Source: Reclinomonas americana ATCC 50394 (taxonomy: Eukaryota). From it: 64,000 bases of DNA. The stretch covers positions 240,628-304,627 of the forward strand of contig PS015061.1 in NCBI GenBank assembly GCA_048213135.1, given 5' to 3'. A program made the position numbers and the translations under genes. Positions 62 through 60,391 of this stretch are shown here, one piece after another. Each line of letters opens with the position of its first letter. Position 1 is the first letter of the stretch. The notes beneath the pieces were generated by a model. The model worked only from the letters and a program-made list of their open reading frames with translations. It searched no databases and had not been told where the DNA came from.

Positions 62-3000
62 TTACTCGGTCGCCTCGGAGAGGGCGCTGGCGCTGGCACT
101 CGGCACACCGCCGTCGCTCTTGCTGGCGTCCTGCAAATTATCAAAGCTGCTGGCGCGCCCACGCACTCGTTTCGGTGGTGTAAAGACCACGTCCTTGAGC
201 GAGTCCACAGCCTGGAGGAGGGGAGATTTAGCGGCGATCGCTCATCGTTCATCTATCCCGAGACTGGCGAAGAAGTTACCTTGTCGGCAATGCGACGGGC
301 AGCCTGTCGCCACCCAGCACCATCGACGGCTGCCGCGCACAAGAGTGAGAAACAGGGTGCGAACTACGCAGCAAAACCAACAAACAAAAAAATGCACACC
401 AGCTTGCTTCAGTCGCTTCCAGTTGTCTACCAACACGTCGAGCTTGAGCTTCTCCTCGATGAGGTTCTTCTTCTCTTTGAAGAACTGCTTCACCGGTCTG
501 ATGGTCTTGGTGTCCTGCAGCTTTCTCATCTGTGCGCAGCGGAAATGATGAACACTTTGCTGCCATTCCGTTTTCTTGCACCCGGCGGCACGCAACATTT
601 CTCTTCAACATCATGGCAATGCCACCGTCACGGCGCAACTCGTCTTGATAGATGCGATGCATGTGCGGACTGGTGATGATGAATGCCAAGTGAGTCAACA
701 ACGCACACGATGTGATGATGACATCGCATTGACTGGCCACGAAACGTTTCCACGACGCGATTGAACACGAGATGGCAGAAGTGGGCGAACAGAGCCATGA
801 AAAACACCGACCAACTGTTGGCCAACAGCGCAATCCCGTAGTAGCCGGAGAGTCCATACAGCGAGTCGGGATGGTTGAGATATCTACGACATAGGAGGAA
901 GGAGGGTGGCATGTTTCTTGAGTTGACGCGACAAACGGCAAGTGACGGCATCGGAGGCGACTCGAACCGGTAGATTCCCGTGTAGATGAGCTTCGGTGGC
1001 AACTCGGTGACAAAAAAGTCGCCATAGTACCTGCGTGGTGCAGCATGCGCCTTTTAGATTCCCTCGAGCACCACCTTCCTCTCTCTTCTCTGTCTTCTCT
1101 CACACACACCATCCAAACAGGCCGAGTGATTTGAGTGCCGACACGGAGCCCCACATATTGACGCCACACAGCAGCTGCATCAAAAAAAGCGCCGCAGTGA
1201 GGGAGTGTACGCACGCGCGCGTCAAACAATGATGGCAGCACACACAGCGCACCAAGCCAGCCAGAGCCTTCCACATGTAGCGCTGGTCCAGAATGTTGGC
1301 CGGGAACTCGGCATACGCCCAGGCGGCCACCACGAAAGAGATGCCGTTCATCGTAAAGGCAATGTTGTAGAGCATCTTCCACGTCTCGAAGGCGTCGCGA
1401 TTCGTCTTGCCCTCGGCTATGAAGCGCTTTGTCCACATGCGCTCCTTGCCCTGGTAGTACAACAGGAAGCCGAGTCCCAGTCCCGAGAACATGCGCCAAA
1501 ACACAAAGTTGCTGTGCGTTGCGCCAGAGTGAGCGCACAGCAGCAAAAGACACATAGTGGTGTGCCAGACGCAACGATAGCAGGAACCACTGCTGCACGG
1601 CCAGGGCACACAGCAGGAGATTGTAGGCCACCACAAACACCAGGCACAGGTCAGAGACTCGGGAGAGCGACAGGTTGAAGAGGAAGATGGACTCGCGCGG
1701 CGACGAAAAGTAGCCGTGTTGCGGATGATAGAGGATGCGCTCACGCTCCGACTCGACCTGCTGGTTGTCGGCGCCCATGGAACCATAAATCTTGTCCATG
1801 TCTGCTCTCATGCACACAGATAAGTGCGTGCTCTCCCAGAGAGTGGGGAACAGAAGACGAGCAAGCAACGCAACGAGGCTCCTCGACCACCATGAGGAAC
1901 ACAAAGTGGCAAAAGTGCACAAAGACGCCGACGTAGAACGGTTCGTACGACAGCGCAAAGAGTGGAGCGCCGTACACAAAGGCGTAGCTGAGGGGCACCA
2001 GCAGTGAGAATGGATGCCACTGTGGAATCTTATCAAACGCTGAGCCTCTCACACGCACCCGACAGTGTACATGGGGTGCGGGAACATTTGGAAGATGCCG
2101 TCGAAAATCAGCTCCTGGTCAATCTTGAAGAAGAAATCGCCCCAGTCTGCCGGAACGCACGCAGAATGAGCAAAACACGCACACAGATTACCTCCCCAAC
2201 ACCGCACACACTACGCAACACCAGGCAAAATCGCCGAGCACACGGTGCGCGTCGGTCTTGGCCCAGATACTGAGGACGCCGAGTGACAAACCCGACAACA
2301 TGATGCCAATGTCGCTGAGCGTCCACTCAGAGGCGGCCCAGCAGATGAACAGGATGCGGAAGACGTAGCAGGCGTACGACACAAAGTCCAGCACCAGCAC
2401 CAGATCCACAATGTAGCGGTAGGCCATCCAGGCGTTGAACTCGAGCGGATACGTGTCGAGCGTGACGGGAAATCCAAGCGATTTCGACAGCCACGACTCG
2501 AACGACGCACGGAACCGCGGCAAGCGTCGAGTGGCGGCATCAAACCACCGCTGAAACGCAAACGAGTTGGACTGGGCGTGCAAAATGTACCCAATGCCAG
2601 CATCGTACGCCAGCCGCCAGAAAATCGTCGAAATCAGAAACACCTGGGACGGCAAGCAACAACAACACAAAACAAACAAACAAACACGGAAAATATAAGC
2701 TGACTGACCAACACTGGTGATTGCTCCGACATGGATCGACTGTGACACTTGGCAACGACAATTCTTCACACAGCGCTCTCTCTCTCTCTCTGTACACGCG
2801 TGTACTGGGGACACACACACACACACACTCACCCACGACGGAGTCCGCGTGAAGAGCAGCGCAAACACATGACCGAGGGCCAACGCCACTGACAAGCCAA
2901 GCACCGGCGTCCATCGCGATGGCGAAAAGAGCGAGCTCATCACACTCGACGTCTTTGGCACACAGAACTCTGCGCGTAGGACCAACGGAGTTGAGACGTC

Positions 3001-3349
3001 CCGAGAGAACGAAAGGAAGACGAGTCATGTCCACACACACAGACAGACCAACACCACCAAAGGTGACGCCCACTGGCCGCGGCTCATCCGGTGCCTGTGG
3101 CGGCGGCTTTGGTGGAGCGAGCTTCTTACTGGGCACAACCATGACATTGTTGTTGCTGTCATCATCGTCTCCCACGTCGTCTTCGGCTTCGCCATGGCCG
3201 CCATGGTCGGCATGACTGGTCATCATCATGAGCGCGTGTGTGCTCTCGCAGCGACGAGGCGGAGCAGCTGCTGTTGTCTTGCCTGCTCCCGCAGCAGCAG
3301 CTGCCGGAGTGCGTCGCCGACGCGGTGGCGTGGTTGGCGCGGACGACAT
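62..3349 (-). CDS. CHO2: Phosphatidylethanolamine N-methyltransferase, fungal CHO2-type (two PEMT halves); about 13 exons
   Basis: Spliced motifs [64 protein letters not shown] and VVEEPHMDKIY. The second half has [19 protein letters not shown] and VVETPHM. Twelve GT-AG introns keep the frame to TAA at 62-64. Confidence 0.88.
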
Positions 3350-3527
3350 TACTTTTCTCGGGATCCCTCAAAGACAATAAGGGAGCGAGCACCTCCCGTC
3401 TGTCTCCAAATGTCCATTTGCACTTCGACGACGACAAGTGAGCGTCAGCTGTGTGTCTTCTTGGCACTCATTTTGTTCACTCGTCCTCCTCCCCCACGCA
3501 GCGCGTGAGAGTGTATCGCACACAAAC

Positions 3528-6500
3528 ATGCTCCGTGTGCTGTGCCCAGTTGCGTTTGCATGTGCGCGTGTGTGTGTGTGCGCGTGTGTGTGCATTTGAC
3601 AGTGCTGCGTGTGTAGGATGGAGAACAACTGGAGCTGGATGTTGCACCGCAGGCGGTGCTGGTGCGGAGGCTATTGGAGAAGTTCGGATCGACAAAGTTG
3701 GCGGGAGTGCCGCCGGAAGCCATCTCTGTGCATGTGTGTTTGCGTCTGTGCTCTCTGTTGTGTGTGTGCATTCGATCGTGGCTGATGCATGTGCATGTGT
3801 GTGTGTGTGTGTGTGTGCGTTGCAGCTTGTCGACGACTTGAGTCAGCCTCTGGATGAGGAGACGGCTCGTGTGTTGTTTGCTCAGTTGCCGGAGACTGGC
3901 CAGCGACGACTCGACTGCTGTGTGCAGTTTGACGAGAGCAAGGCATTACCTGCAGGCGAGTACGTGTCGATGTCCCATCGATTGCACGTTGCACTCACAT
4001 CCAACAGGCGTCGTTCGTCAATGGTCGCGGGAGGTCGTGTCGCACGACTATTTCGTGATCCAGCCGCCAGATACGAGTATGATGGGTACGTTGGGCGTGT
4101 GGCATCGACTGCTGCTGGTGAGCTCGTCTCACTCGGGAAGTCTGACACAGGCTCGGGTGTGCTGAAGTATGATCCGGTGTTGGTGTCGTGTGAGTTCATC
4201 GACAACTCGATCGAGCACATCACAGTCGGGGAGCACGCGCGCGGAGAAGGACGTGTGTTACTGACGTGGAATGTGGAGGATGAGGTGCGATGGCATGTGC
4301 CGCTGTGCACTGCGGCGCTGGTTGTTGTTGTTGATGATGAAGGGTGATGGATGTAGGATGCGTCAGTGTCCATTCGTGACAACGGGTGTGGCATGGACAG
4401 TCGCAGCATGGCTACGTTTTTCCGCCTCGCCTATTCGGCTGCGCTGAACTCGCGTGGCGGCGAGTTCGGCAGCCACTCGCGTTTTCTGTTCATCTCCTCG
4501 ATGTATTCGATGTATGGTGTCGGTGCCAAGGTTTGTGCAGAACGTGTTATATGTTGTGCGCTGCAACATGCGAATGACCATTGGTAACGCAGTTTGCCGC
4601 CACCGAGATCGGTGAGCGACTTGCGATGCAGTCGTCACGCGGTGGTGGCATTGCATGCACCGGTGTCGTCGACAAGCAGCTGCTGCACGAATCCGGCACG
4701 TGGCAGTTCAAGGTGCAATACACGAGCACTGAGCGGCTCGAGTCCTACACCGAGGCCACCATCAGTCAGTTGACAAAGAATGCTGTCGAATCCATGAGGC
4801 ACTACGTCGACGAGGACAACCGTAAGCTGTGCGAAACCATCGCGCACATTTACTATCCGCTGGTATGCACTCTTCGCCCATGTCATTGCATTCCGTGCGA
4901 TGAAATTATAACTTTGCAGCGGTGCAGATCTTTTCCTGGTCGCGACTGATTCCTGTCAACAAGGTGGCCAGGCTCGAGGACCTTGCGCAGTTGCACGCTG
5001 TCATCTTCAGCTTCTTTCCCGACCTCCCACCTGCCAGTGTGTTTGCGACTGAGGACGGTGTGGACGGTGGTGAAGGTGAGTTTGCGCGTACCACAGGTTT
5101 TCTTATTGTTTGTGTGATTGTCACACACACTTGAGCAGCGGCTCGATCCTCCGATCGAGAGGGATCGGCAGAAGTTTCTCGTAGCACCCGTGCTCGGAAG
5201 GATGACGGTGCGGAGGATTCCAGGAAAATGCTGCTGCTGCGTCAGATGCCAGCAGTGGTGACAGTTGCGTTTCGCGCAGTGTGTGCTTCAGGACGATGCG
5301 AACTCACAGCCTCTCTTTGCTTGTGAATTCAGCAACAAGAGCAAAATCTCTCGTTTGCAATCAACCGTTACCTGCTAAGAGAGGTCGATGCCGTGCAGCC
5401 TCTGTACGACACGCTGCTGTTCACGCGTGCCGCCTCTGTCAAGTGCTTCCGCATGTGTATACGTGACGGTGACAAAACGGCTCATTTGGTGGTTAGTAGT
5501 AGCACGTTTGGTAGCTGCTTGTCGCAGTAACTTACCGCCCTTGGAATGTGCGCGTGCAGGTTGTCCTCGGCTATTTCCCCATCACACTCGGGCAGGAGAC
5601 GATGCCCGAACATCCTTTCACCGGCAGAGCCGAGTGTGGTGTCGACATTCGCTGGATGGGTCGCTTGCTGTGCGGAGAGCGCTGTTTGCAGCTTCCGTGG
5701 ATCTTTCCGCGACGCAAGCTGTCGCAGCGCTTGCTGAATCGCGTTCGTGGCACGCTGTATCTGGTGCGTCTTGTCTTGCAATGTGCAGCAAGCAGCGCGT
5801 TTGTGACTTGTATAACTTGTGCTTTGCTGATTGCAGGACGAGAATTTCGCCCCGCAACAAAACAAGAATCTGCTCGACCCGGTCTCCAAGTTTACCACGG
5901 CACTGAAGGACGGCAACCTCTGTGATATGCCGCTGCGCATCTTCAACTTGAGGATGGTGGACGAAGTTGCCCCGCAGCTCGGCAAGGTACATGAATCGAG
6001 CATCACGGCGAAGGAGCTGACAGAGCAAATCTTGGACTGGGTTGAGTACGCGAGCCAGTCGTTCGACATGGATGTTGCGTGCGGTACCCCACGATGTCAT
6101 GGTTGCCTCATTTTGCGCTCATTCTCCTGTTATTGTGGGCAGATTACTCTCCACAAGGATGACTATATTGTTGGCAATGGAGAGATGCTACTCTATCGAG
6201 CCGCCACCGTGTATGGCAAGAGATTCCACCAGTTCGAGTACATCCACTGGGAGGAAAACAGCTACTTCATGATCGCCTACTTTGTGGAGAAGAACTGGGA
6301 TATACAAATTCTCGGTGATGAGCCCAACGACTGCTTGCGTGAGTTCGCTCCGGAATCTGTTGGGTTTGCTGTTGGGGGGAACCATTCACATTGTGTTGTT
6401 TTCGTGTTGCAGGTGTCGCGTTGTTGCCCGTCAACAGTCCACAGCAAGTGGAAGCGCTCAGTAAGGAGAAGACTCCGCCGCACCAGTGGGCGGCGAGCAC

Positions 6501-9500
6501 GTTGCAGATTCTGCCGGTCCGCGTCGTGTTTGGCGACTTGCGTAGTGGCGTTCAAGCGAGAATCGACAAGTTTGGACCTTTCCTCCGCAATGTCGTGACG
6601 CGAAAACTGTTGCGTCTTGTCCTTGCACAACCGTCATGCTGTCTGTGCTGCATGTTCATCTCTGCTTGCAGCCAAGCAATGTTGGAAAAGGCGCCTGTAC
6701 GACACGCAAGCTTGGTCTGTGATGAGAAATTCTGGGAGGCGTGTCGCTTGGCAGTGGCCGATCAGGACGATGTTCCAAAAGAGGACGACGCGGTGAGCAG
6801 CATAGTCACAGCGCCTCTGCGTTAGCAGTTACTTACAGTGATGTGGTGGTTGCAATCGTGCAGGAGCTGGAGGCCAGCGGTGTTCGCGAGCTCGCAACAA
6901 GCACTGAACTCGTGCGCCCCGTCGGATTCAGAGTGCCGTGGGACTGGATGCGGATCATCGCTGTTTCACGTGCTGGCAAGGTTTGTACGTTTGTGCCGTC
7001 CGTGGAGTCGCTCTCTGTCGCTAAAGCAAGCGGCTGCTAGGCTTGTCCCGATGCCAAGTTCAACGCCGAATTCAAGATGTACCTGACAGAAGCTGGCGAG
7101 CACGAGCGAAAAGTTGTGTTTCGTGATGATTGTCCATTGAATCCCCGTCACTGACGTGGTGATTCGACAGGTATTCTACGAGAGAACGAACCAGAAGCTG
7201 AAAACGTACAAGTTTGCCGATTTCTCGGTCACCAACATGAAGTTGGAGAAGGTCGGCAGATACGATTTCGAGTTTTCCAGCAAGGATCTTGATCCGTTCT
7301 GCTTTAGCGTGACAACTGAGCCTGGTGAGTTTGTCGAGTCACGACAGTGCAATCTCGCGCGACGCCACCATTCTCACTCCACGCACTAGGAAACCTCTGC
7401 AAGTTGCTTGTCAGTGGCGGCAACGTGGAAGTCGGTCAGAGTACGACCTTTGTTGTGCACGGAATCGACTCGGAAGACATTCCTGTCCGCATCCGTGAGA
7501 CCGACATTTTGTCACTGGAACTCCAGTCTCATCTGGTTGGTGGCTACGCCACAATGCATTGTGTGCCTTCTCTGAACGTTCTCACCCTGCCGCGCAGCGT
7601 CGCAAGATTGAGTTCTCGTACACCATAAACGTGGGCGAGGATACGTTGCCCCTCGGTGCCAAGGTGTCGGTGAAGGGGCGACCGAAGTTGCCGTCGCTCC
7701 GCATTCTGTTGACACCAACTGGGCGCTTTGTTGGCGATGACCAGCGTTTCGTCCTCATGCTGCTGCGTGTTGTGACGCAGGCAGGCTGTGCTTTCTTACA
7801 AACATCGTAACGTGCAGCGTCGTCGGATGTGCTCGGCAAAGCAACACTGTTTATCCGCTATGGTGAGAATCGAAAGGAGAAAGTCGGCTTTGAGCTCAGA
7901 CAAGGTTTTTGACGCCGGTGGTTGTCACTTTTCTCTTCTTTGGTATGCTGACGTGCTCCGCGTGACACAAGGTCCTCCTGCTCGTGTGGTGCTGTCTGTG
8001 GACTCGGTCACCGTCTACGACGGTGCGCAGCCGGACGACGACATCAGTGCAGAGGTTGCTGCATTGACTTGCTGCCGACATGTTGTTGCAGTCCACTGAC
8101 TGTGTACATGCAGGTTCTCGATGCGGCAGGCACACGTGTCGTCACGCAGCCCGTACAGCTCACGCTGCACGCCGTTGGTGGCCGTCGCGTTCTAATCGCC
8201 CCGAATGTAACCGTAGATACAGATGACGGCTACTGTGCCAGCCTGCAGCAGCACGTGACAGTTTTGTGGCGATGACCTTCTCCTGCGATGTGTGTGCGTG
8301 TACTATGATTCTAATTACACAAACAACAGCTACACCCGGATTTCTGGGGCACAGCTGTGATTCGTGTGCAAGTCGCTGGCCGCGCGGACATCGCAGCCGA
8401 CCTGACTGTCCGTCGGCTACAATCCTCATTGGTCGTGGAGCCGTGTGAGGCACTGGAGCCACTGCCCCGTGGGGAAGCCAAGTCGCGCCACCCCCTGAAG
8501 TTGTGGGGCGTGTCAGGTTCGGAGATCGAGTGCACCATGCGGCGATGTGCTGAGGACGGGACTCTGTTGCTGTCAAAAGTGTTGTACTATTCAACAGCAG
8601 TCATTCCTGCGTGCTATGCTGCTGACTTTTGTGTCTGTGGCACGCAGTTCAGCGTCAAACTTCCTGGCGTGCGAGGAACGACTGCGAGTGATGATGACGG
8701 CATCTGCCGTGTGCACGTACGGCTGCCGAAAGAGGCTCGCAAACGTGTCGCCACAGATGTTAGTTTCAAAACTGTTCGCTGACATTGTCATCTCTGCAGC
8801 TTGGTGCCGCCACGATTCCAGTAACGCTGCGGTTTTCCGACTCGTCGACGAGGGAGGAAGAGGTGCCTGTGCTGTGCTTTGTCGGTCAGCCGACAAAAAT
8901 CGCCAGCATCACGATTCCCCAAGATGTGCACATTGGTTGCCCGTTCGACGTGGCTCTGCGAGTCACCGACGAACACAACAACGACATCCCCGCGGCAAAA
9001 TTGACGCGCAACGCTGTGCGTCTCGAGTTTGTCGATGCCGGCGAAGTCAGAGTGTCGCCGAATCGACAAGTCAATGCCTTCGATCAGCTCTTCTTTACCT
9101 GTGAGATTCAGCGCATGGAACTGGATGGTGCTTTGCGTCGGCGAGCCGCCTGTGTTGCTTATCTCGAGCCAGCCGTGCGTTCCGCGAGTTCTGCTTGTTT
9201 TTGCGTTGCATTCTCTGATGTCTCGGTGCGCTCTGCAGGCCCGAGGAGGCGCCGGTTCTGCTGAGATTCGTGAGAGTCGCGATTTTTGCGTGGTGGCAGG
9301 TTTGTGCCTGTTAGTGCCTGTCGAATCCCACCACTGCAGCACTGCAGTCCTAACTCTTCATAATGCAGGGAAACCTAGTGTCATCAAAATCGAGCTGCTC
9401 GGCGGTGGCCGTGCCGAGGTTTGTGATGGGATCTCAGCAAGTGAGACCATTATGGATGCCTGACTTGCGGTTGTGTCGCACAGGAGGAGCAACCGGCAGT

Positions 9501-12500
9501 GACTAACGATCCAGTCGAGCTGTATGCAGAAGGTGGGCGACCGTGGACACAAGAGATTCGCATTGCTGTCGTGGACCAGTCGAACAATACGACGATTGCG
9601 AACAGTGGGGGTGCGTCCATATTGTCAAGGATTACGTTTGCTTTGATTCGCACACGCTGCTTATTCGTGCGTATGGTTGCAGTTGTGTTTCTTCTTGGCG
9701 ACGGCTCAGTGGCGCCGAAAGCTACTCGCTCCGGTGGTGCAGCCGCTGCCAGTGTCGTGCATGAGGACAAGACATTCAAGAAGCGTCATTTCTCCATCAC
9801 GGGTGAGTTGGCTCACGAGCTCCGTCACTCACTGATGAAGATGCTGAAAGCGGAGTGGACACTGTGCAGAGCATCAGCCGTTCGCTGACGTGACGTTGGC
9901 CTACCCGAAGATGGATCGCCCCCGCACTTTTGTTATTCGCTGTGGCGACTGTGAACGCAAGGTGCGTGCGTCGGAGTCGACTTGATGATCCGTGTGTGTT
10001 GTCTTGACACTCTTGCTTGATATGCAGATTGTTGTGCATCGAAGCCGATCACATGATCCACACAGCCTGCTTGTGAGCGTCTTGGGAATGCAGCCGTTGT
10101 TTGCTGGCCACGTGTTCCCACGCTGCAAAGTCGTCGTGTGCGATGAGGATGGCAATCCGCATCCCGAATCGTCCGCTTTTGCCCCGCACTTGTCGTGCGA
10201 CGTAGCCGAGCTCACTGCGCCGACAGAGGACGACGCTCCGCCGTGGACAAGGGCGTTTGACCGGGAGGAGAATGGTGCGTGTCGAATTCCCGCTGTGATG
10301 CTGCTGTTTACGCTTGTTGATTGTCAGCGTGAGTGCAGCATGGTTCTTCGAGTTTCAACGACCCATCAGTCGTGTGACGCGCCGGAGCGTTGATGTCACT
10401 TTCCTGTTGCCCGAATTTGGTGAGGCGCGCTCACGTGTCAGCGTTTCGCTGTTGTCGGGTGAGTACGTCGCCGTGCATGTGTGTGTGTGTGTCCCTTTGC
10501 AAGTGTTGATCGAGATTGTTGTCCGTGGTAGGTGCGCCGCACGCCCTGGTAGTCGTTGATGCAGCGAAAAGGTGAGTGATGCAAGTCAGTGTGTTGTGTC
10601 GGAAGCGCATTCTCATCCGCGAGCAAGCAGACACATGGCACACGTTCAGTGCCACCTGAGCGATGCCGGCGGTCACAGTCGCGTCAGGTGCATCGTTGTC
10701 GACAAGTTCGACAATCCTACGATGCTCAATCATCCCGAGTTGCGCGTCACATGTCTGCAGCAAGTCCACCGATGATCATGGCATTAATAATGCTTGTCAC
10801 GGGCAGGCTGCCGGCACAGATTGGCGACGTGCAGGCTCGTTTCGTCAACCCACCACACGAAGACCACCAGTGCAGCAACATCGATATCGACGCACGTACA
10901 AACCCCTCGATCGTTGCCTTCGACTTTAATATGCAAAACGAGCGTGCAGTCACTCTGCCAGGCCACTTTGCAGTCGACTTTGTTCTTGAAGGAGCGGAGG
11001 AACCATTGTCGCTGCAGACTTCCGAGGTGACGGTGTTTGTGCCTGGAGGTGAGAGACAGTTTCACTGCATTGATACGCAGTCGTAGTTTCTCACCTATCC
11101 TCTCGCGCAGCGGCTGATGCCGCCGAAGAGAATCAACGAAAAGCTCTGCGCGAACACGTCCTGGCGCAGCGGAAGATCGCCAAACAAAGTCTCGGCGTGC
11201 TCCAGAGCACAGTCAAGGCATGCCGTGTGTTTTTGCCATGTCCGTTCTGCAAAGATGTCGTGCCTGACCCTGCAAGCCTTGATGCAGACTCACCGTGCAT
11301 GGCTGACGACCAATCTTGCGTCCATGAACCTGACTCTCGACGAGGTGGAGCGGCGCGTTCGAGAGAACAGTCCACTGCCTGTCCTCGATGTGACGCGCTT
11401 CTCGTTCTCGTCACAGCACGATCGCGCACAGCAACTGGTTTGTCCGATCGCAGACTGCTACATGAGGCTTGGCACATTCATTGCTGGTGTTTGCAGGATA
11501 TGAGTAGAGTTCTCGGACAAGTAACACGCGAAAGAGACGGCGTCCTTGGTGTTCTTGGAATGGTACCGGTCATACACATCGCGATGTTCACATATTGTGT
11601 CCTGCTGACGGAATTGTTACATGTGCGGCAGATGGCGCAGGTGGTGGATTCGCGAACGAACTGGGCCATCTCCAGTCTCTTGCAGAATGTGATACGTGCC
11701 TTGGTGCTCGAGCGGGCGGACAATGTTGATGAACTGCGCCGTCGATTCCGGGATGAGGTAAAACGAGTAGCTCTTTGCATTTGCTTCTTCTTTCGCCGAC
11801 CGCGCTCACCAACACCCGTGTCATAAGGACGTGGCTTTTATCAAGCTCGGATCCCTTCAGCTTGAGCTTGACGGCTTGTTGCGTGACGACTGCATGACTG
11901 TGGACGGGGCTGTCAGGTTCCGATGGGAGCCACAAAAGAGGAGTTGTGTTCGTCTGGCCTACCAGTGCTACTGGCATCGTCTCACAATGTGGCCGCAGAG
12001 TTTTACCCGAGTAAGGATGGCTCAATTCGGCCGACAGTTGACGGCGTTCCTGACGGCGTGATGCACAAGTGCTCATTTGCCATCAACCAGTTGGTGTACC
12101 GGTTTGATCCCGCACTGCCGGCGAACAAGCGGTTCATCAAGGTGTGGCACACGCGAGAGATGCCTGTTGTTCTTCTCATGCAACCAACTTTGACTGTGAC
12201 TTCAGGTGTTCTACAAATTCTTGTCGAGCACCATGTTGTGGGAAACCATGGATGACTTGCGCGAATTTGAGCGCCGAGTGCGAAGCATCCCAGCCACGTG
12301 CGTGAATTCTTTGACGCACAGCTCTTGGCACATGTGGCTTACCGTCTGGATAACACAGCATGGTTGCCCTCCGGCAACCGGAAGTGGACGTGCCATATGT
12401 TGTGAAGACAGACGGACTTGAGTACTCGAAGCAGCGCACGCCTGCTGTCAACAATGGCACATTCAGACTGCTGCAAGTGACGGCAGAAGATGTCCTCCCG

Positions 12501-13326: not shown

Positions 13327-16221
13327 ATGGCAGCATCCCATCCAGTGGGCGTTCCACTGCCACCAGCACCACCACAAATACCATCGCTGCCATCCATGGC
13401 CAGCCCGCCTCAGCAGCAAGCACCGCCGATCAGTGTCACGCACTCGTCGTCCTCGTCTTCCGCTGCACCACCCGCATCCAACCCCGCCACTGCCGCTGCC
13501 TCGGCCGCTGCAGCCGCTGCAGCCGCCGCAGCCGCCGCCGCCTCGTCGGTGGTCACTCCCACCTCAGCGTTAACTGCGGCCCCGACCATCTCCGTGCTCG
13601 TTGTCGTCTCCTCCTCGCGTGGCCAGCAAGTCGTGCTGCAGTATCCGCCACCACAGGAACCGGCGAGTGGCACCGCCGCAGATGCCGGCACTGCCTCGTC
13701 TGCCTCTGTGCCTGCCAACTCGGCGTCCGCCACCGTCACCGCCGCTGCGTCTGCGACACCCACACCACCTCCGCAACAACAGGCTCCTGCTGCTCCTCCT
13801 CCGCCCCTCACACTCGGGAACGGTGGAGGCGCTGCGTCGGCGGGAGAAGGCGCAGGCGATGGTGATGGTCTGTCTCGCTGCTCTTGTCTGTGTGTGTGTG
13901 TGTGTGCGTGCATCTCTCATCTGTGAGCAGATCATCTGCGCGGACGACGGCATGCTCGACATGCGACGACGGGCTCGAGCTCGCTGCCGTCGGCCTCTGC
14001 TGCGCCGCTGTTGCTGGGCACGGGTGGAGGACCACCGCCGCGGAGAGCCATGCCGGTGACAGTCGATGTTGCGTTGCCCGTGTGGTGTTGTTATTGGTGC
14101 AATCGTCGACTGATCGGCATGTATGTGTGCGTGTGGCAGTCGCCTCTGCCTCAGGACGACGTGCCTGGTGCGTGGTTGGACTCGTCCATGTCACCCAGTC
14201 CATCGCCGTCGCCGGGTGCCTCGCCACTGGTGCCGTCCACGCCCGGCCGAGCCACTGGCTCCTCCCTGTCGCAGAATTCATCGCTCCCACCGCCTTCATC
14301 GACGGCGGCCTCGTCGGCGTCGGCTGTCACCGCTGCAGCCAGCGCCGGTGGTGCGGTGGCAGGTGCTGCCTCGTCTTCTGTGGCGCCTTCGACGTCGTCG
14401 CGACCTGTTAATCTGTCGGCTGTTGCGTGTGGACAGCGAAGGATGTGTTTGTGCGTTGTGCGCTGATTGTCGTGCGCTGCAGACGTCGTTGGACTTGATC
14501 TTTGGCTTGCCTTCGTCGGCCATGTCTGGTCTCCTGTGTCCATCCAAGTCCGCTCTCCTGATGGGCCAGTCGGGGGGCGCTCAGCCGCGTGGTCACATGC
14601 TGCGAATGGAATCACTGATCTTTTTCTGCCTGCCGAGCTCGCTGAAACCGGCTCGCAACGCTCCATCGACCGACATTACGCACTACTCGCTCGTGCTGGC
14701 GTTCCCTCTCCGGCAGTCGCGTGTCCTTTCGGCATCGCTGCGTGCCAACACGAGCCCCGTGCGCGAGATTGCCGAGCGCTACACCAACGTACTCACCTTG
14801 ATTCGCGAGGCACTGCTGCGAGAGCAGATGCGCTGCAACTTTGTGCTGGAGGAGCTCAAGCTGTTGACCACGATTCACGATTCGCACTCGTCGTGGCCTG
14901 CGGTCGTCGAGCACGCACTGGCCAAGAGCGAGTTGGCGCGCGAGTTGGCCGTTTTCCACCGCGTGAGTACAACTCGTCGACGCACGGCTTGTCTCGTGCG
15001 CCACACTTGCCTGACTTTGCGCGTACGCAGTGCCTGTCGGATTCCAATGCCGTGCATCTCGCCGTGAATAACTGGGTTCCGCTGTCGCTGAGATTACCGC
15101 GGCCACTTGATTTCGGTCCACCACGGCCGACTGTCGTGCATGGCGATGGCGGTCTTCACGGCGTGCAGCCACACCTGGCGGTGCTGCTGGAGGACGGTGC
15201 CGCGGAGTTCATGGCGCAGCTCAAGTGCTGCACGCCGATTGTGAAGAAGCTGGTGTCGACTCTGATTCCCTTTCGCACCCTGCAAGAGGTTTGGCACTGA
15301 GCTCATCCTCGTGCTCGTGCGAGTTGAACGGGGGAGCACTCAACTAGGTTGGCGCACACAGCTGGCGACCGAGAACGAGACCAGCGTGGACACCATGTGC
15401 GCTCTCGCTGCACATTTGCGGTACTGGGGACTGGCGCGTCTGTTGACTCGAGTGTCGCGCAACACGCGGTTCCGAGTGGACGGATCGGCGTATGGCGGTG
15501 AAGTGTATCGCATGTTGCACGCGGAGCGTGAACCTGGCGAGGTTGGTGTCGCAGTCGTGGCACTTCTTCCTCTCCCCCTGTTGACGCTGATCCACTCGAT
15601 GTGAGCAGTTTCAGCGGCGATTCTCACGCCTCAACTGGCCGCTCAGTCGCACGCTGCAGCGCTTCTCGGTGACCACGCACTGGATCTTTCACGATCTCTC
15701 GCTCGAACAATTCAACGAGCTGCAAGAGGTGATGTGGTGGCCTCCCTCATCTCTTTTACGTATATGCGTGTGTGCGTCGCTCACTCCTGTTTGCACTCGC
15801 GTGGCAGGCGGTCGTGTGGCTGCTCCAGCGACAGCTGATTCGCCCGGTGTACCGCTACGTGCAGATGCTGTCGAACGACGACGACGACGACATGGACGAC
15901 CATCAGCACGACCCGTACATGCACGTACACCACCACCACCATCACCACCATCACCATCGTCAACGGCACCACCACCACCATCATCACCACCACCATCACG
16001 AGCACCATCATCGACAACGACCACATTTTCATGCACGACCACCTCGGGACTTCCAGCAAGTTGCCGACGCCGATGCCGAGACCTTCCTGCGCCTCAAGCC
16101 GTTCTTCACGGGCGAGTACTCCGTGGACGACATCCTGGCGCAGGTGCATCTGTCGCCAGACGACTTTGAGCGCATCCTCGACACCTATCGCGACCTGCTC
16201 GTGCAGTACGACTTGCAGTGA
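13327..16221 (+). CDS. NPRL3: GATOR1 subunit NPRL3/Npr3 with low-complexity inserts and a poly-His tract
   Basis: ISVLVVVSSSRGQQVVLQYPP (longin start), ALLREQMRCNFVLEE, KSELARELA, VHLAVNNWV, LAAHLRYWGLAR, VVWLLQRQLI and FLRLKPFFTGEYSVDDI. Confidence 0.85.
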
Positions 16222-26400: not shown

Positions 26401-27027
26401 TGAGATGGAAAGAGCGCAAACGACGAGAGCGCGTGTCGGTGCTGACGGAGTGAGTTCGGCAGATTCGAGATGGAGATCCGACTGCCGGCATCGGATGGCT
26501 CGCAGATATGGATCAACTGCATTGCGGACGCACATCAAGAAGACAATATGATTGTGGTTCGTGTGTGGAGCACGAAAGTGGCCAAGTAAGAGAATCGCAT
26601 CACTCACTCACTCACTCCTATCATCGCGCAGGGCTACGTCGGTATTTTGGTTGATGTGCGTTGCTGCCGACTGCGATAGGCACACGTGGGCGCAGAAAGA
26701 CTCACCCCCGCGACGCAGATTACCGAGATGAAGCGGACGCAGGCGCGTCTGGAACAGATGGTGCTCTCTGAGAAGCGAGCCAGTGCTAGCAAGACGGACT
26801 TCATTGCGGCGGCCTCTCACGAGGTATGCGCGCGTCAGGCCAATATCGCACTCTCAGCCTCTGTACTCCTTACATTCTCTCGTTTACGCAGATTCGAACG
26901 CCACTGAACGGGATGCTTGGCATGCTGCAGTTGCTGACGCTGGAGAACCACGTCTTGCCAGGTGGCAAAGAAGTTGTGTGCACACATGCATCAATTACGT
27001 CTTACAGATTTCCGTTGTTGACTGATG

Positions 27028-27099
<72 letters not shown>

Positions 27100-32364: not shown

Positions 32365-32410
<46 letters not shown>

Positions 32411-32873
32411 TGTGTGTGTGTGTCGCACCACTACACTAGTACGTACGTACGGTACGGACGGACGGCCGGACGGACGGGACGGGCGGACGGACGACGACGA
32501 CGTACGTCGTGGTGGGGNNNNNNNNNNNNNNNNNNNNNNNNNNNNNNNNNNNNNGTACGTACGTACGTACGTACGACGTACGACGACGACGTAGTAGAGA
32601 GAGAGAGACGAGACGAGGAGAGAGAGACGAGAGAGAGAAGAGAGGAGGGAGAGAGAGAGAGAGAGAGAGAGAGGAGTGTGTGTGTGCGTGTGCCACTCAC
32701 CATGAACACGTTGACGAGCGGCCAGAGGGCGGCGACGAGCACGACGTAGCTGTGGGTGGTGAGACACACAGAGGGTGAACAACATGCTGCAAGCAATAAT
32801 GCAAGAAAGAGTGTGTGCGTGTGTGAGAGGCGACTCACCCGTACTCGCGCGGGAGAGAAGCGATTGAGGCCAT
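31551..32873 (-). CDS. MGST3: MAPEG family microsomal glutathione S-transferase 3-like; 9 exons including 7-nt and 14-nt microexons
   Basis: Spliced product MASIASLPREYGYVVLV..VGKARKLYGVKYPLLY..SNVYNCVQRGHQNTLE..LLLGGLSYP..RVVYFVSYSTGKPEARNRGAFG. Confidence 0.9.
32367..32690. repeat. (GA)n/(GT)n microsatellites around the gap N 32518-32554, intronic in the MAPEG gene
   Basis: Directly visible. Confidence 0.9.
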
Positions 32874-35536: not shown

Positions 35537-39420
<3,884 letters not shown>

Positions 39421-47951: not shown

Positions 47952-49344
47952 TTAGAGCTTGTCGAGTGACTCGGTGGTCTGGCGCACCACTTGCGAGTGG
48001 CCATACTGCGCCACGTCGACGCCCTCAGCCTTCTCCGCCTCCACCTTCTCGATGATCCAGTCGTAGGTCCTGCGCAGGCCGTCGACGAGGGTGATGCCGG
48101 GCGCCCAGCCAAGCACCTCCTTGATCAGCGTGTTGTCCGAGTTGCGGCCACGCACACCCTCCGGGCCGGGGATGTGGCGGATCGGCAGCTCACGCTCGCC
48201 AAACGAACATGCCATCCTGGCCATCTCGTTCATCGACACCATCTCGTCGGAGCCAATGTTCAGCGGCTTCTTGTAGTCCGATCTGCAACCGAGGGGTGAG
48301 GAGGGGATGTGTGGGGAATGGCATGTGATGAAAGCAAACGCACCGCATGAGGCGCAGAATGCCCTCCACGCAGTCGTCAATGAAGCAGAACGAGCGAGTC
48401 TGCTCGCCGTCGCCCCACATCTCAAAGTAGTCGGTTGAGCAAATGGCCTTGCGGCAGAACGCAGCAGGGGCCTTCTCGCGACCGCCCTTCCACGTGCCGT
48501 GCGGGCCGTAGATGTTGTGGAAGCGGGCAATGCGCGTCTCCTGCGTAGCGAGAGAGATGTGCGTGAGCGGAAGAGAGAGAGGCAGAGAGATGGTGAATGG
48601 AAGCGACGCAACAATCGGGAAGTCGTTGGCGTAGTGCATCGCGAGCTCCTCCATGGCGAGCTTCTCCAGGCCGTAGGCGTCCTGTGGGCGCGCTGGCCAT
48701 GCATCGGCCTCCTTAAGGCCCGGGTTGGCCGAGTCCTGATGGGATGGCAAGAAGGTGAGTTATGGGGGAAGGGAGGGAGAGGGGAGGGAGAGGGAAGGGA
48801 GAGAAGAGGGAGAACAGGAGACATGAAAAAGACGAGTGAGGGAGAGAGGCTAGGCAGTACCTCCTGCTTGTCCTCCGGGTAGATGCAAGCCGACGAGGCG
48901 TAGAACATGCGCTTCACACCATTGCGGCGGCACGACTCCATCACGTTGAAGTCGCACACTGTGTTGTTGTACAGAATGACCGAGTGGTTGCTTTGGATGA
49001 AGCCCATCTGCACAATGAAGTAAGAGTGAGTGAGCGGAAGAGAAAGAGAGGCGAGGGAGGAGAACGAGGACGAAACTCCACCCATGTCGGCAGCCAAGTG
49101 GAACACCCAATCGCAGCCCTGAGTCGCGCGCAGGCAGTTCTCGAGTCTGTGACAGAACGAGAGAATCGTCAGTGATGGAGGAGGACGGATGAAGGGCGAA
49201 GAGAGGGAGGTGCGAAGAGAGGGAGGGAGGAAGGGAGAGAGAGAGGAGAGGGAAAGGAGAGACGGAGAGAGTGAGTGGAATGAGTGAGTATGAGAGCGAG
49301 TGAATGAGGTGCGATTGAGTATGAGGAATGAGAGAGAGAGAGAG

Positions 49345-49411
<67 letters not shown>

Positions 49412-49861
49412 ATGAGAGAGAGAATCGTCAATGATCATGCAGAGTGCCATGTGTGCATGCATGCGTGGCGACGCAACGTGCGCAGATCCAACAAGAGGAA
49501 CTCGTCGCAGAACTCGGACTTCTCAAAGTACTGTGTGAGAGAAAGAGAGAGCACGTGAGCACACGTGATCAAGATCCATCAACAGAGTGAAACGACTCGC
49601 ACGCAACCTCCTGCTCCTTCCAGTCAGCACCAATCACGTGGTGGCCCTCCGCCTTCAGACGGCGAGAGAGGTGACCACCAATGAAACCACCGGCACCAGT
49701 CTGCAAAGGAGAGAGAGAAGGAGGGAGAGAGTGAGGAGTGATGCTCATGCGCGCATGTTGCACGCGCCCCACACGCGTCCACTCTTCTGCGTGTGTGTGC
49801 GTTTGCTCTTGTGTGTGTGTGGGCGTGTGTGTGTGTCGGTACGCACCACGCAGATCTTCAT
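47952..49861 (-). CDS. GME: GDP-D-mannose 3',5'-epimerase; 8 exons
   Basis: TGAGGFIGGHL, VFHLAADMGGMGFIQSNHSVILYNN, YASSACIYPE, PQDAYGLEKL, WKGGREKAPAAFCRK and HIPGPEGVRGRNSDNTLI are GME-specific motifs. Confidence 0.95.
49331..49410. repeat. (GA)n(GT)n microsatellite in a GME intron
   Basis: Directly visible. Confidence 0.95.
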
Positions 49862-50852: not shown

Positions 50853-53800
50853 ATGTCCGTCTCCCTTCCCCCCCACTCTCACATGAGCCACCTGCTCTCC
50901 TTTGTGGAGGGCCTCCTGCGTGGCCGAGTAGACGAGGTCACTCTCCACTCCCCTCTCTCTCAAGAAAAAACATGCATTTCCCCGCGCTGCTCACTGCCTC
51001 TCTCCTGCCCCCTCCACACACACACACACACACACAGATCGACCTGCGCAACAGCGGCCTCACCGACCGTGACGCTCGCGACATTGCTGCTCTCCTTGGC
51101 AAGTACCAACAAACAGCAACACCACGCGAGTTCCGCCTCAATGGTAAGTCACTACACTGGAAGTCTCAATCTCTCACACATGCACACACACACTCTCACG
51201 CACGCACTCCACACATCAGTGAACCAGATCGGCCCCGAAGGTACTCGCGCACTGGCTCTTGTCATGAGTCGCGTGGAACGACTGCACCTGGCTCGTTGCG
51301 TGACACACACTCTCACTCGCGCGCACTCACTCTCACTCTCTCTCTCTCTCACACACAGAGAATCGCTGTGGAGTTGAGGGCGCGCGATGTCTCGGCAAGT
51401 ACTGTCGCCAGCTGACACTGCTCAATGTCACAAGTTTCGCCTGCGAGTGAGAGAGTGAGAGAGTGAGAAACAACAACGATCAACGATGATATTCACCGCA
51501 CACTGGTGCAGACTGTGATATCGGTGATCAGGGATGTGCGGCGATCGCCACTGGGTGCACACAATTGGGCACGTTGATTGTGGCAGGTGCGTCTTTAGCT
51601 CTCTCTCTCTCTCGCGGTCGTTGTGTGGGCGACACTGAGGGCGATTGTTTGTGCAGGGAATGGAATCACAAAGATTGGCGCAGCGGCCATGGCAGCTGCC
51701 TCGTCGGCGCTGCATACACTGGACGTGTCGAGTTGTGTTTCTCACGTGCGCGCACACTGTGTTCTCTCATCTGTCTGACGTGGTTGTTGTCGGTGTCGGT
51801 GTCGCAGAGAACCCGCTTGGTGTCGATGGTGCCAGAGGTATGTGAAGGCTGCATGATGGTGGCGTCGACATTTCTGACCCGCGCTTTGTTGTGTTGCAGC
51901 ACTGGCTGGTGGGCTCCCGGCACTGACGTGGCTCGATGTGTCGCGTTGCGTGCCTGGTCGTGCGACTGCATTTCAAGTTTTTTTGTGGGAACTCATCTCG
52001 TTTCGCAGAGACTGCGCTGGGCGATGCCGGCGCTGCTGCGATTGCCCAGTTCGCCACGCTCACTTGCCTGAGAATAACTAGTTGAGTTGACAGTGATTGG
52101 TGGACGAGTGCGTATCGCATCTCTCCTTCGCTGTGTTGCCCTCGCGATGTCCCTCTCGCTGTGTCATTCTCCCTGTGTCGCTGTCGCTGCGTCACTCTCG
52201 TTGTGTCGCTCTCGCTGTGTCACTTTTACTGTGTCATTCTCGCTGTGTCGCTCTAGCTGCGTCACTCTCGCCGTGTCGCTCATCGCTGTGTCGCTCATCG
52301 CTGTGTCGCTCATCGCTGTGTCCCTCTCGCTGTGTCACTCTCGCTCTGTGTCACTCTCGCTGTGTCGCTCTAGCTGCGTCGCTCTAGCTGTGTCGCTCAT
52401 CGCTTTGTCTCTCTCCTCACTGTGTCTCTCTCCTCACTATGTCGCTCATCGCTGTGTCGCTCTCCTCACTGTGTCGCTCATCGCCGTGTCGCTCATCGCT
52501 GTGTCGCTCATCGCCGTGTCGCTCATCGCCGTGTCGCTCTCGCTATGTCTCTCTCCTCACTATGTCGCTCATCGCTGTGTCGCTCTCCTCACTGTGTCGC
52601 TCATCGCTGTGTCGCTCATCGCTGTGTCGCTCATCGCTGTGTCGCTCATCGCTATGTCGCTCTCGCTGTATCGCTCTCGCTGTGTCACTCTCGCTGTGTC
52701 GCTCTCGCTGTGTCGCTCATCGCTGTGTCACTCATCGCTGTGTCACTCATCGCTGTGTCGCTCATCGCTGTGTTGCTCTCGCTGTGTTGTTTATTGATGT
52801 GTCGCTCTCGCTATGTCGCTCTCCTCACCGTGTCGCTTTCGCTGTGCCGATTTCGCTGCGTCGCTCTTCTCGCTGTGTCGCTCTTCTCGCTGTGTCATAC
52901 TCGTTGTATCGCTCTCGCTACGTCGCTCTTCTCACTCACTCTCTTCCTGTGGACTTACTCCTCTTCTCCATTCTCGCTCTCCTTTTCCATCCTCACCCTC
53001 CACCACCTCCCCCAGAAAACGACTTGAGCACGGACGCCTGCGAAGCCATCTCGTCGGGATGCCCGATGCTCACTGAATTGTGGTTGTCGGCCAACCCAGC
53101 AATCGGCGTCGGTGGCCTGTTGCGTGTGCCCAGCTTTCCATCGGCCGTGTTGACAACTGACTTCTCCTGCATAGAGCGGCAATCAGCGAACGGTGTCGCG
53201 AGTTGACCACACTGCGAGTGTGTCGTTGCGTCTCATGCCTCCCTTCTTTTGATCTTGTCTCCACATTCTTGACTCCCCATCGTCGCGCAGACTGCCAGCT
53301 GGACACGGCAGCAGTGGATGCGCTCTGTGGACTGTCTTTACTGCAGTCGTTGGATGTCACTGGTGCAGAAATAATCACTCTTTGCTGCCACCAACCTCGC
53401 CTGGCAGTCTCATTCTTTTCCGCAGGCAATCCTCTCGGCAACAGTGGTGCTCAGCGGATCGCCACGATATCCTCGCTCACCGAACTGAATGTGTCGGAGA
53501 TCAGCATGGGTGCTGCTGGTGCCAAGGCGATTGCAGAGGGATGCGGGCAGCTCACATCGTTGACCACGACTGGTTTGTTGATGCATCTACACGCTATTGC
53601 GAGAGTAGTGATAGCGAGCTACACAACCTGTTGTTGCGATCTCACGCCTTCCCTTTCTCAACGTCGCTGCTACGAGTCTCCGTTCTTTTGTCTCGTGTTA
53701 TCTGTCTTTCCACCTTCATGTTTCCACTTATTGTGGATCACACTCTCGTTTCCTGTCTCCTCTCGTCTCACTCACAGTTTCTCTCGCATCTACCTCCATT

Positions 53801-55027: not shown

Positions 55028-55061
<34 letters not shown>

Positions 55062-58589: not shown

Positions 58590-58692
58590 GTGGATGAGGA
58601 AGAACTGCCTGCAATGCAGGCCCGCACGACGTGCATAACACTAATGAAACTGTACAACATGTATTGCTCCAAGCGTGCGTGCGCTCCTGCGT

Positions 58693-60391
58693 CTACTTGG
58701 CGGGGCTCACCACCACCGGACCGATAGAGCCGGAACTCTCGCTCACCGGTGGTGCCGAAAAGCCCTCGCCCAGCACCTCAGCATCGCTGCGTTCCGACAC
58801 GGTGGTCGCCGTGGCAGTGGTTGAGGAGTCCTCGGCGTCACCGACCACACCAGGTACTGTCTTGGCATGGCTGCGTGGCCACTTGGTGGTGTCCACAGTG
58901 GAACCGGAGCCGGAGCCGGCGGAGACGTCACCGGCACTTGATTTCATGCCGAGCTGCACGAGCTTGCCGGCAAACTCGGACTGTTCTCGCTTGTTGTCCG
59001 TGGCCAGTGTCTGCACGACAAGCATGAGCGACACTCTTGTTCATGAGAGAAGGCACGTCGGTGTCATGTACCTCACGGCCCTCACGAATGGCGTCCACCT
59101 CCAAGCGCGTGAGGAACATGCTGTCGAGGCGATAGTCGATGAAAGCCTCGGCCGCCACCGGCACAATGTCCTTGATCAGGGCAAACATGGTGTAGGCGTA
59201 GTCGCGAATCTCCTGCTGCGCGTGCGCGTCCATGCGCAGCGAGAGGAAGTGCATTGTGTTGTGCAGATCGGCACACCAGTACCACTGCAGAGAGAAAGAG
59301 AGAGCAATGTGAGACGCGGGGGAGAGGAGAAGGTACAATGAACTGGCTTACCTCGGTGTACGTGTTGAGCGGGAGGCCAATGCGCGCCTGTTCGCGGCTG
59401 AGACCCTTGGCAAGCAGACCCTCGTACTCCTCGTAGCTCTTCTCGGCGCGGTCCAGATACGAAAGGAATTCCTCGGCCGTCATGTCGTCGGCCACATCAA
59501 CTGCATGCCACAAGGAGTGGGTGAGAATCGGAGAGCAGAACCACGCTGGCACTGTCGACAGCAAGCACACCTCCTCCCTGGCGATTGGCCGTCGACTGCT
59601 TGCGAATGTTGTCGAGTGTCGGCCGGTAAAAGAGGTCCTTGACCACCGAGTACCGCGCCGAGTATTCGTTGACGCTGGCGGTGCGGTGGCGGATCCACTG
59701 GCGAGCTGCCGGAAAATGCAATGTCAGCACGCTGGCCGAGTCGCCACACGTGCGGCGGAGAGAGAGAGAGACGCAACCGATAAAGATGGGCATGCGACAG
59801 TGGAACTTGAAGCGAACCATCTGGTGGCAGCCGACGACACGAGTCAGCATTGTGTTGAAAGAGTGAGTGCATCAGCAGACGAACCTCGAACGGAGTGGTG
59901 TGACGATGACGAGACAGGTAGCGAATCAGACCGCGATCCTCATTCACGCGCTTCGTTCCGTCGCCATACGACACTCGAGCCGCCTGTATAGATGGTCCGG
60001 AACGAGACAACACCAGTGAGGACAGACGAATCTCAATCGGACACTCGTGATCCTCGCACATGCACAAGCACACTCTTGCACACACACACACACAGAGTGC
60101 TACGTATACACGCACCTGCACAATGGCAAAGTCGGCAGTGTGCCCGCGCGGCACCAGACGCGGCATGCAGTCGACCAGTGCGACCATTCCGTGATCGTGC
60201 ACGGCCACCTCCCATCGCGCACTGCCGCCCATCACATCCACCAGCTCAGTCTCCGCAGGCACGCGGTTGATGCGGATCGCCGAGCATGAGTAATCAGAGT
60301 AGTCGAGCGAGGTGAAGCCGGCCTCGGGCATCACACTGCCTCCACTACCGGAGGCGCTGCGCTGCTGTGTGTGCTCGGCGGTGAATGACAT
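58693..60391 (-). CDS. thyX: Flavin-dependent thymidylate synthase ThyX (Thy1), Dictyostelium-like; 7 exons
   Basis: [21 protein letters not shown], the ThyX motif [28 protein letters not shown], and [22 protein letters not shown]. Confidence 0.96.

Follow-up and report, generated by a model that had tools for sequence, protein, structure and literature searches.

Few features of eukaryotic gene expression are as conserved as the U1 5' end and the G/GURAGU logic (here and below, a slash outside brackets marks the exon-intron boundary). The closest described departures from this logic concern human 5' splice sites (5'SS), some of which Roca and Krainer reportedly found in 2009 to be read in a U1 register shifted by +1. 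In the present study we analyse 64,000 nucleotides (nt) of Reclinomonas americana ATCC 50394 (GenBank assembly GCA_048213135.1, contig PS015061.1, positions 240,628 to 304,627 of the forward strand; this whole stretch is called the window), where about a fifth of the modelled introns begin with a second, discrete donor consensus, H/GTTGCGT, which is displaced by one nucleotide with respect to the ordinary donor.

Variant human U1 genes (vU1) with altered 5' ends would offer a second reader for non-consensus donors, and we know of no variant U1 that serves a fifth of the introns of any genome. The 'left-handed' and 'right-handed' 5'SS defined by LUC7, with exon-leaning and intron-leaning matches respectively, are said to be the ends of a single-register continuum. 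In animals and plants, LUC7 proteins discriminate between two types of donor (10.1101/2022.12.07.519539; for this and the other articles cited, statements refer to the accessible portion of the text). Among 201,541 human 5'SS, validated non-canonical registers account for 1.5%, with 68 sites (54 curated) for the +2/+3 bulge, and U12-type introns for 0.36% (PMC4856993), figures which agree with the rarity of GUU-type shifted or bulged sites assumed by an earlier note on this DNA, made from the sequence alone and called here the original prediction. Reviews class the shifted and bulged registers as exceptions (PMC9311317), and U6 may also use non-canonical registers (PMC11162779). The nuclear genome of Andalucia godoyi is described as intron-poor with introns that are all GT-AG, and the accessible text does not mention donor classes (PMC7050145); the accessible parts of PMC12817076 and PMC1201135 contain nothing on donor sequences. 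In the literature on the motif, on registers, on protist consensus sequences and on jakobid introns, supplements excluded, we found no report of such a class, in agreement with the original prediction, to which no description at this scale was known; unpublished jakobid annotations may contain such junctions.

Results

A second donor class in the window

With a G+C content of 53-64%, the window is compact eukaryotic DNA rich in introns. Genes were modelled on both strands by a generalised hidden Markov model with a three-periodic Markov coding model, any GT as donor and any AG as acceptor, so that only GT-AG introns were permitted. The model was self-trained from seeds in eight evidently coding stretches (5.2 kilobases, kb), training on long open reading frames (ORFs) having yielded 63 introns without a consensus. 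From the resulting 20 genes three low-scoring models were left out, and the census comprises the 17 genes at 80 bits or more with their 197 introns (median length 69 nt).

Without any donor or acceptor model GTTGCG was already the commonest donor hexamer, at 7 of 95 introns versus 71 of 8540 GT sites (binomial 1.6e-5), the next being GTGCGT with 6; once one position matrix had been included it was again at the top, with 20 of 183. A two-component mixture with random starts and 30 restarts splits 202 donors into a class A (0.78) and a class B (0.22). Class A has the profile (A)G/GT[G/A]NGT (-2 A 0.49, -1 G 0.82, +3 G 0.56, +5 G 0.81, +6 T 0.61) and class B the profile H/GTTGCGT (-1 G 0.05, +3 T 0.96, +4 G 0.82, +5 C 0.79, +6 G 0.97, +7 T 0.79). 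The original prediction had listed 38 donors of the second kind (23 on the plus and 15 on the minus strand); in each case the position given is that of the first G of a GTT[G/T][C/T/A]G, 30 of the 38 being GTTGCG and most of the 38 continuing with T, and the mixture run recovered 37 of the 38 unprompted.

Defined by the pattern GTT[GT]NG, class B comprises 44 of the 197 introns of the 17 genes, or 22% (95% confidence interval 17-29%), which bears out the abundant second class, with G at +6 in place of +5, that had been claimed. Seven of the matches were absent from the earlier list, three of them marginal (8261, 15289 and 29130, with GTTTTG or GTTTGG). The heptamer GTTGCGT is present in 25 of the 44; the T at +3 (1.00) and the G at +6 (1.00, 44 of 44) belong to the definition of the pattern, and T at +7 reaches 0.80. 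The remaining donors are 129 without GTT and 24 other GTT donors, of the form G/GTTNGT in the ordinary register, with G at -1 in 21. Class B is found in 11 of the 17 genes, namely all 11 genes with at least seven introns, so that its attribution to nearly all genes was too broad.

The two classes are sharply separated on the exon side. G stands at -1 in 127 of the other donors and is missing in 26, versus 3 and 41 in class B (Fisher 5e-21), and 41 of the 67 donors lacking a -1 G (about 60%) belong to class B. The motif is also specific: 25 of the 33 copies of GTTGCGT in the window are modelled donors, one lies in a sense exon, four in antisense exons and three in unmodelled DNA, and for the 71 copies of GTTGCG on both strands the corresponding counts are 30 donors, 4 copies in sense and 22 in antisense exons. 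GTTGCA, GTTGCC and other control hexamers are never used as donors and show no depletion in sense exons. Scored with the class-A matrix, class B has a median of -7.5 bits versus +4.0 for class A.

In everything else the introns are alike. The median length is 69 in both classes (Mann-Whitney p 0.64) and the phases agree (p 0.95); the acceptors follow (C/T)(G/A)CAG, position -4 being G in about 60% of the introns of either class and position -3 being C in 0.93 of class B and 0.82 of class A. A branch-like CT.A[CT] lies 8-45 nt upstream of the acceptor in 27 of 40 class-B and 95 of 138 class-A introns, and CTCAC, the most enriched 5-mer in that interval in class A, is enriched in class B too. 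Class B is thus a second, discrete donor class which has all its other intron features in common with class A.

Other accounts of the class were considered and rejected. The signals of U12-type introns, an [A/G]TATCC start and a TCCTT[A/G]A branch site, were found in 0 of 44 class-B and 0 of 153 other introns, so that a U12-type identity is rejected for all 197. An all-against-all BLASTN comparison of the 197 introns gave five weak low-complexity matches, and there is no conservation past +7; class-B introns are therefore not copies of a mobile element, and introner relics are rejected for this window. Derivation of class-B donors from ordinary ones through replacement of G+1 by T was rejected by reasoning, as it would shift the frame, and an AG acceptor offers no way to compensate.

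Evidence for the junctions

For independent evidence on the junctions, the gene of GDP-mannose 3,5-epimerase (GME; minus strand, 49861-47952, seven introns) was read with tblastn against three homologues together with inspection of the sequence, and the modelled protein was then aligned to 39 homologues, a junction being taken as supported by a high-scoring segment pair (HSP) which runs gap-free across 6 residues on either side. Its four class-B introns are 49531..49607 (gag/GTTGCGTG, within KEQE/YFEKS; 38 of 38 HSPs gap-free), 49147..49477 (cac/GTTGCGTC, within DLR-T-LENC; 331 nt with microsatellites; 38 of 38), 49008..49076 (gga/GTTTCGTC, within ADMGG/MGFIQ; 39 of 39, identity 1.00) and 48541..48612 (att/GTTGCGTC, within DFPI/ETRIARF; 32 of 39). 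At 49076 an intron displaced by one base at both ends was considered and rejected, as the protein would then read GVG and not the invariant GMG.

The gene of a two-domain phosphatidylethanolamine N-methyltransferase (PEMT), on the minus strand, was compared in the same way with 40 homologues. Four of its class-B introns are supported by the gene model and by gap-free HSPs: 2147..2219 (ggt/GTTGCGTA; 51 of 53), 1802..1874 (ctc/GTTGCGTT; 42 of 52), 1512..1575 (atc/GTTGCGTC; 28 of 41) and 670..745 (aac/GTTTCGTG; 40 of 41). The fifth, 530..596 (aat/GTTGCGTG), rests on the gene model and lies in an unconserved tail in which the homologues are uninformative (2 of 10). The claim that many of the sites are fixed by conserved motifs holds for these eight GME and PEMT donors, DFPI/ETRIARF included; for HLKQ/VLLNL in the histidine-kinase gene (27691..27758, plus strand, caa/GTTGCGTT; gene model) the exon after 27758 begins at position 9 of the HATPase_c profile, which fits, in a weak match (E 0.078).

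A different type of evidence is provided by the gene of an RNI-type LRR protein (units at 50883-53600, plus strand), whose repeat starts lie 23-26 residues apart. Six class-B donors fall 4.3 residues past a repeat start and in phase 1, namely those of introns 51295..51358 (ctc/GTTGCGTG), 51434..51511 (caa/GTTTCGCC), 51732..51807 (cga/GTTGTGTT), 51945..52008 (cgc/GTTGCGTG), 52081..53015 (cta/GTTGAGTT) and 53225..53290 (gtc/GTTGCGTC), and the ordinary donors 51587 (GTGCGT) and 53363 have the same repeat position and phase. When the split codon begins with G (Gly) the donor belongs to class A, and when it begins with C or A (Gln, Lys, Asn or His) to class B. Inside the intron, a single-base indel is all that separates GTGCGT from GTTGCGT, so that the classes can interconvert with the messenger RNA untouched. 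One more class-B intron of this gene, 53119..53174 (cct/GTTGCGTG), is in phase 2. Intron 52081-53015 has 935 nt and consists throughout of a degenerate tandem repeat with units such as GTGTCGCTCATCGCT, which is strongly skewed in C/T and produces spurious ORFs of great length.

A ThyX-type gene (flavin-dependent thymidylate synthase, Pfam Thy1; 59270-60400, minus strand, at least four introns) was missed by the models, the gene finder having put a spurious plus-strand ORF there; ThyX is uncommon among eukaryotes. The splice at its class-B intron 59706..59777 (tcg/GTTGCGTC) was read by eye and restores a stretch of 12 residues, the flanking exons matching Pfam Thy1 positions 15-54 and 72-102.

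Nearby canonical donors were also considered for the whole class and rejected: an acceptable in-frame alternative GT, within 60 nt and at or above the tenth percentile of class A, is available at 10 of the 44 class-B sites versus 22 of 153 controls. On this comparative evidence from the sequence we regard the class-B junctions as real, and the introns as U2-type GT-AG introns, whose removal restores both the frame and the continuity with homologues.

Register and pairing with U1

When read one base to the right class B becomes A-G-U-U-G-C-G-U, which differs at a single position from A-G-G-U-G-C-G-U of class A. The exon side follows the same displacement. For exon positions -4 to -1 of the 44 sites the class-A profile slid by one gives -344.9 bits, the exon background -360.3 and the profile in the same register -468.4; position -1 of class B (A 0.41, G 0.07) resembles position -2 of class A (A 0.50, G 0.15). 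In every case the inserted base is U, in accordance with what a shifted register would require. A bulge at +2/+3 would leave -1 facing C9 of U1, so that a favoured -1 G is expected; it is found at 3 of 44 class-B sites versus 127 of 153 others, and the shifted register is therefore favoured over the bulged one. The original prediction had offered a shifted or a bulged register, and the exon-side statistics thus favour the former.

Pairing with U1 was evaluated against decoys, 1500 GT sites sampled from the same genes. The mean number of pairs of class B is 6.41 in the shifted, 4.16 in the canonical and 6.36 in the bulged register, versus 4.20 for decoys. Duplex energies were calculated by nearest-neighbour rules with the universal U1 5' end, pseudouridine being treated as U and the cap and the U1 proteins being ignored; on these terms class A has a mean predicted energy of -6.26 kcal/mol, class B one of -1.19 and the decoys one of -2.46. 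As the predicted class-B duplexes are weaker than those of decoys, plain slippage on a standard U1 would be insufficient.

Both of the substitutions predicted to strengthen this pairing, G at -1 and A at +5, are avoided. An A at +5 would give -5.1 kcal/mol, yet +5 of class B is C in 30 cases, T in 5 and A in 1, versus A 30, C 30 and T 20 at the equivalent class-A position (p 1.2e-5). The decoy-level pairing, together with a position +5 that favours C over A, suggests a pairing partner of different sequence. The simple account in which GTGCG(T) or GTGAGT is displaced by an extra T is thus incomplete, with A at +5 in 1 of 36, G at -1 in 3 of 44 and a predicted U1 pairing weaker than that of decoys. 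In class-A donors lacking a -1 G, C at +4 (GTGCGT) is present in 15 of 26 versus 39 of 127 (p 0.013, uncorrected), with no enrichment of A at +4, which runs opposite to the prediction from pairing with the pseudouridine at U1 position 5. Examples of such class-A donors, all on the plus strand, are 9175, 12298, 12588, 25494, 26656 and 47131. With a hypothetical face carrying G and C the mean energy would change from -6.26 to -8.28 kcal/mol for class A and from -1.19 to -6.35 for class B.

Other class-B introns and features of the window

The class-B introns described in this section are placed by the gene models. On the plus strand the series begins in a GHKL-ATPase/SMCHD1-like gene with 3549..3616 (cca/GTTGCGTT) and continues with 5264..5332 (aca/GTTGCGTT), 6074..6142 (gat/GTTGCGTG), 6609..6671 (act/GTTGCGTC), 7113..7170 (aaa/GTTGTGTT), 10739..10806 (cga/GTTGCGCG), 11943..11998 (gga/GTTGTGTT), 14068..14139 (gat/GTTGCGTT) and 14422..14482 (gct/GTTGCGTG). 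New with respect to the earlier list are 7746..7817 (agc/GTTTCGTC) and 10031..10093 (att/GTTGTGCA), along with two marginal pattern matches with weak motifs, 8261..8329 (aca/GTTTTGTG) and 15289..15361 (gag/GTTTGGCA), the latter with G at -1.

Further along the same strand lie 22033..22100 (aac/GTTGCGCG), in a WD-repeat gene, 23105..23191 (aga/GTTGCGTT), the newly found 24439..24504 (cca/GTTGCGAG), and 26973..27392 (gaa/GTTGTGTG), which has 420 nt including the N run at 27133-27357. These are followed by the marginal match 29130..29178 (gat/GTTTTGAT), likewise new and with a weak motif, by 29472..29548 (gtc/GTTGCGTT) and 30243..30307 (gct/GTTTCGTT), and by 45105..45164 (gct/GTTGCGTG) in a WD40/coiled-coil gene.

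On the minus strand there are 17592..17672 (gcc/GTTGCGTC), in an RTF1-like gene, 18620..18685 (gga/GTTGCGAC) and 35639..35708 (gtg/GTTGCGTG), which was not listed before and is one of the few with G at -1. Three more belong to a MAPEG/MGST3-like gene (31551-33065, minus strand), namely 32139..32207 (gta/GTTGCGTG), 32026..32094 (cga/GTTGCGTT) and 31948..32018 (cta/GTTGCGCT). Two putative micro-exons are modelled in this gene; one, of 14 nt (32208-32221), precedes the class-B donor of 32139..32207, and the other, of 7 nt (32019-32025), precedes that of 31948..32018.

Besides the genes already mentioned, of which the histidine kinase is of the hybrid type, the window contains genes for a WD40 protein and for the proteasome subunit Rpt2. 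The Rpt2 exons at 62524-62865 and 63630-63998 (minus strand) are 94.1% identical over 237 residues to Rpt2 of Seculamonas ecuadoriensis, and the best of 110 other full-coverage matches has 87.8%; judged by this one protein, the DNA probably comes from a jakobid related to Seculamonas. The Rpt2 gene is separated from its neighbour by a transfer RNA (tRNA) gene (62227-62307, plus strand; Rfam, 61.5 bits). In the Rfam scan of the window this tRNA alone was above threshold, and no spliceosomal small nuclear RNA (snRNA) was found even at E up to 5. A match resembling a C/D-box small nucleolar RNA at 20892-20943 (E 0.0011, below gathering) lies inside an acidic coding repeat and is probably due to chance. 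When metagenomes were scanned with the WD40 exon, the three loci found had 28% identity and do not represent relatives. Microsatellites of the types (CA)n and (CT)n are very numerous in introns and spacers, for example at 49330-49420, and in addition to the N run in intron 26973..27392 there are three others, at 32518-32554, 37596-38109 and 63048-63364.

Discussion

The explanation that we favour, and to which we would give about an even chance, is that class-B introns are true GT-AG introns of the U2 type whose donors follow a second discrete consensus, H/GUUGCGU, beside (A)G/GU[G/A]NGU, and that this consensus is read one nucleotide out of register, probably by a pairing face that is not universal. 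The pairing would be slid by one, with the intron G+1 taking the place of the exon G-1, U+3, G+4, C+5, G+6 and U+7 of class B standing for the ordinary +2 to +6, and the exon base at -1 acting as -2; such a register would be the +1-shifted U1 register of the rare human sites. The cut would stay at GU and be fixed later by U6 and U5, where the extra U would have to be accommodated as a bulge. That class B demands G-C-G-U and avoids both A at +5 and G at -1 argues that the reading face is probably not the universal ACUUACC. More tentatively, the face may carry G and C in place of two pseudouridines, in which case a single U1 would pair perfectly with G/GUGCGU and with one mismatch to /GUUGCGU. 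A re-coding of the face in this lineage, either by a U1 with G-C for the two pseudouridines or by a second U1-like snRNA complementary to GUUGCGU, is possible, although we hold it to be rather doubtful. If true, it would mean two donor dialects one nucleotide apart, class B being the usual one where the exon cannot end in G. The original prediction had also named a variant U1 or U6 or a specificity factor, and we consider this alternative, snRNA variant or factor, at least as likely as plain slippage of the register.

Several observations weigh against the reading that we favour. All the statistics come from one 64-kb window and from self-trained models with errors (the missed ThyX gene, the doubtful micro-exons, the three marginal sites). 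The bulged register gives as good a pair count as the shifted one, and decoys are predicted to form stronger duplexes with the universal U1 5' end than class B does. The signal of compensation by C at +4 is weak and uncorrected, and U is present at +4 in 18% of class B, a mismatch to C in the proposed partner. Furthermore, eukaryotes are known to share an almost identical U1 5' end, so that a re-coded one would be unusual.

Among the other explanations, an arrangement with two U1 species, the ordinary one for class A and a variant U1-like snRNA with an ACGCAAC-like 5' end dedicated to class B, seems to us unlikely but the most credible of them. The near-invariant consensus of seven bases, the bias at +5 towards C and away from A, and the weak predicted pairing to standard U1 all speak for it, as does the preference for A at -1, which fits a U beside the complementary stretch; a hypothetical face fully complementary to class B would give -9.79 kcal/mol for class B and worsen class A to -4.95, the pattern of a dedicated reader. 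However, the switching of classes at the same intron positions of the LRR gene and the sharing of all other signals mark no separate pathway, and one U1 with a G-C face would cover both classes more economically. Somewhat less probable is that proteins or later small nuclear ribonucleoproteins are the main readers, with a factor of the LUC7 or U1C type or an RNA-binding protein acting on UGCGU and with U6/SNRNP27-type positioning setting the cut. Such reading would agree with a predicted U1 pairing no better than that of decoys and with a class that lacks an exon-side consensus and has a strong intron side, as the extreme of the intron-weighted 5'SS class which LUC7 paralogues separate, and U6 can use non-canonical registers (PMC11162779). 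Against it stands the fact that class B is class A slid by one base at six of seven positions, as expected of a nucleic-acid ruler and not of a protein motif.

A standard U1 with a bulged U, in which G+1 and U+2 would pair with C8 and A7, U+3 (or U+2) would be flipped out and GCGU would take the place of +3 to +6, appears improbable. The register exists in humans (PMC4856993), its pair count is as good as that of the shifted one, and a bulge with U6 at catalysis would be needed anyway; yet -1 would face C9, so that G is expected as in class A (0.81) and found at 0.07, the same-register model is 123 bits worse, and a -1 G is avoided although it would strengthen the class-B duplex far beyond its present value (-5.9 versus -1.4 kcal/mol). 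The inserted base is, moreover, always U, though any base could bulge. An artefact or a relic, with the true junctions elsewhere and GTTGCGT as a nearby enhancer, or with the motif as the remnant end of introners, is in our estimation very improbable. The models are self-trained, and motif and model might thus reinforce each other, but the motif arose without any donor model, eight sites are gap-free in alignments with homologues, in-frame alternative class-A donors are about as frequent at class-B sites as at controls, and the comparison of the introns with one another gave a few weak low-complexity matches and no conservation after the first seven bases.

Shifted and bulged registers have so far been treated as rare exceptions, known from mutations in a small number of human exons. 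If about one fifth of the introns in a genome have a sharply defined donor displaced by one base, that genome would be a natural large-scale test set for U1 binding, for the hand-over to U6 and for the coupling of both to the choice of cut site, and would bear on whether the U1 pairing face can evolve. On the practical side, gene finders with a single matrix score class-B donors about 11 bits lower and would mis-annotate many genes here and in related genomes.

Among the described systems, the human +1-shifted sites have in common with class B the GUU start, the usual +5 G at +6, a cut at GU despite the offset pairing, which for class B is proposed, and an exon -1 that acts as the ordinary -2. 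The human sites are isolated and atypical, whereas class B is a discrete class with about 22% of the introns and a near-invariant heptamer, in which an A at +5 that would lengthen the helix with standard U1 is avoided and the predicted pairing with standard U1 stays at the level of decoys. With the human +2/+3 bulge it has in common GUU donors and a surplus U between GU and the downstream consensus; the numbers are 54-68 among 201,541 there (PMC4856993) versus 44 of 197 here, and the avoidance of G at -1 opposes a bulge. As in the LUC7 classes (10.1101/2022.12.07.519539), two U2-type donor classes occur in one genome, one exon-leaning and one intron-leaning, with an anticorrelation between -1 G and the intron side; unlike the LUC7 continuum, class B is displaced by one nucleotide and sharply separate. 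Finally, class B resembles U12-type introns in being a second class whose 5' consensus is long and rigid and whose exon side carries little signal, but it has no U12 motifs, its acceptor, branch-like motif and length are those of class A, and its frequency is far above the share of U12-type introns in human (PMC4856993).

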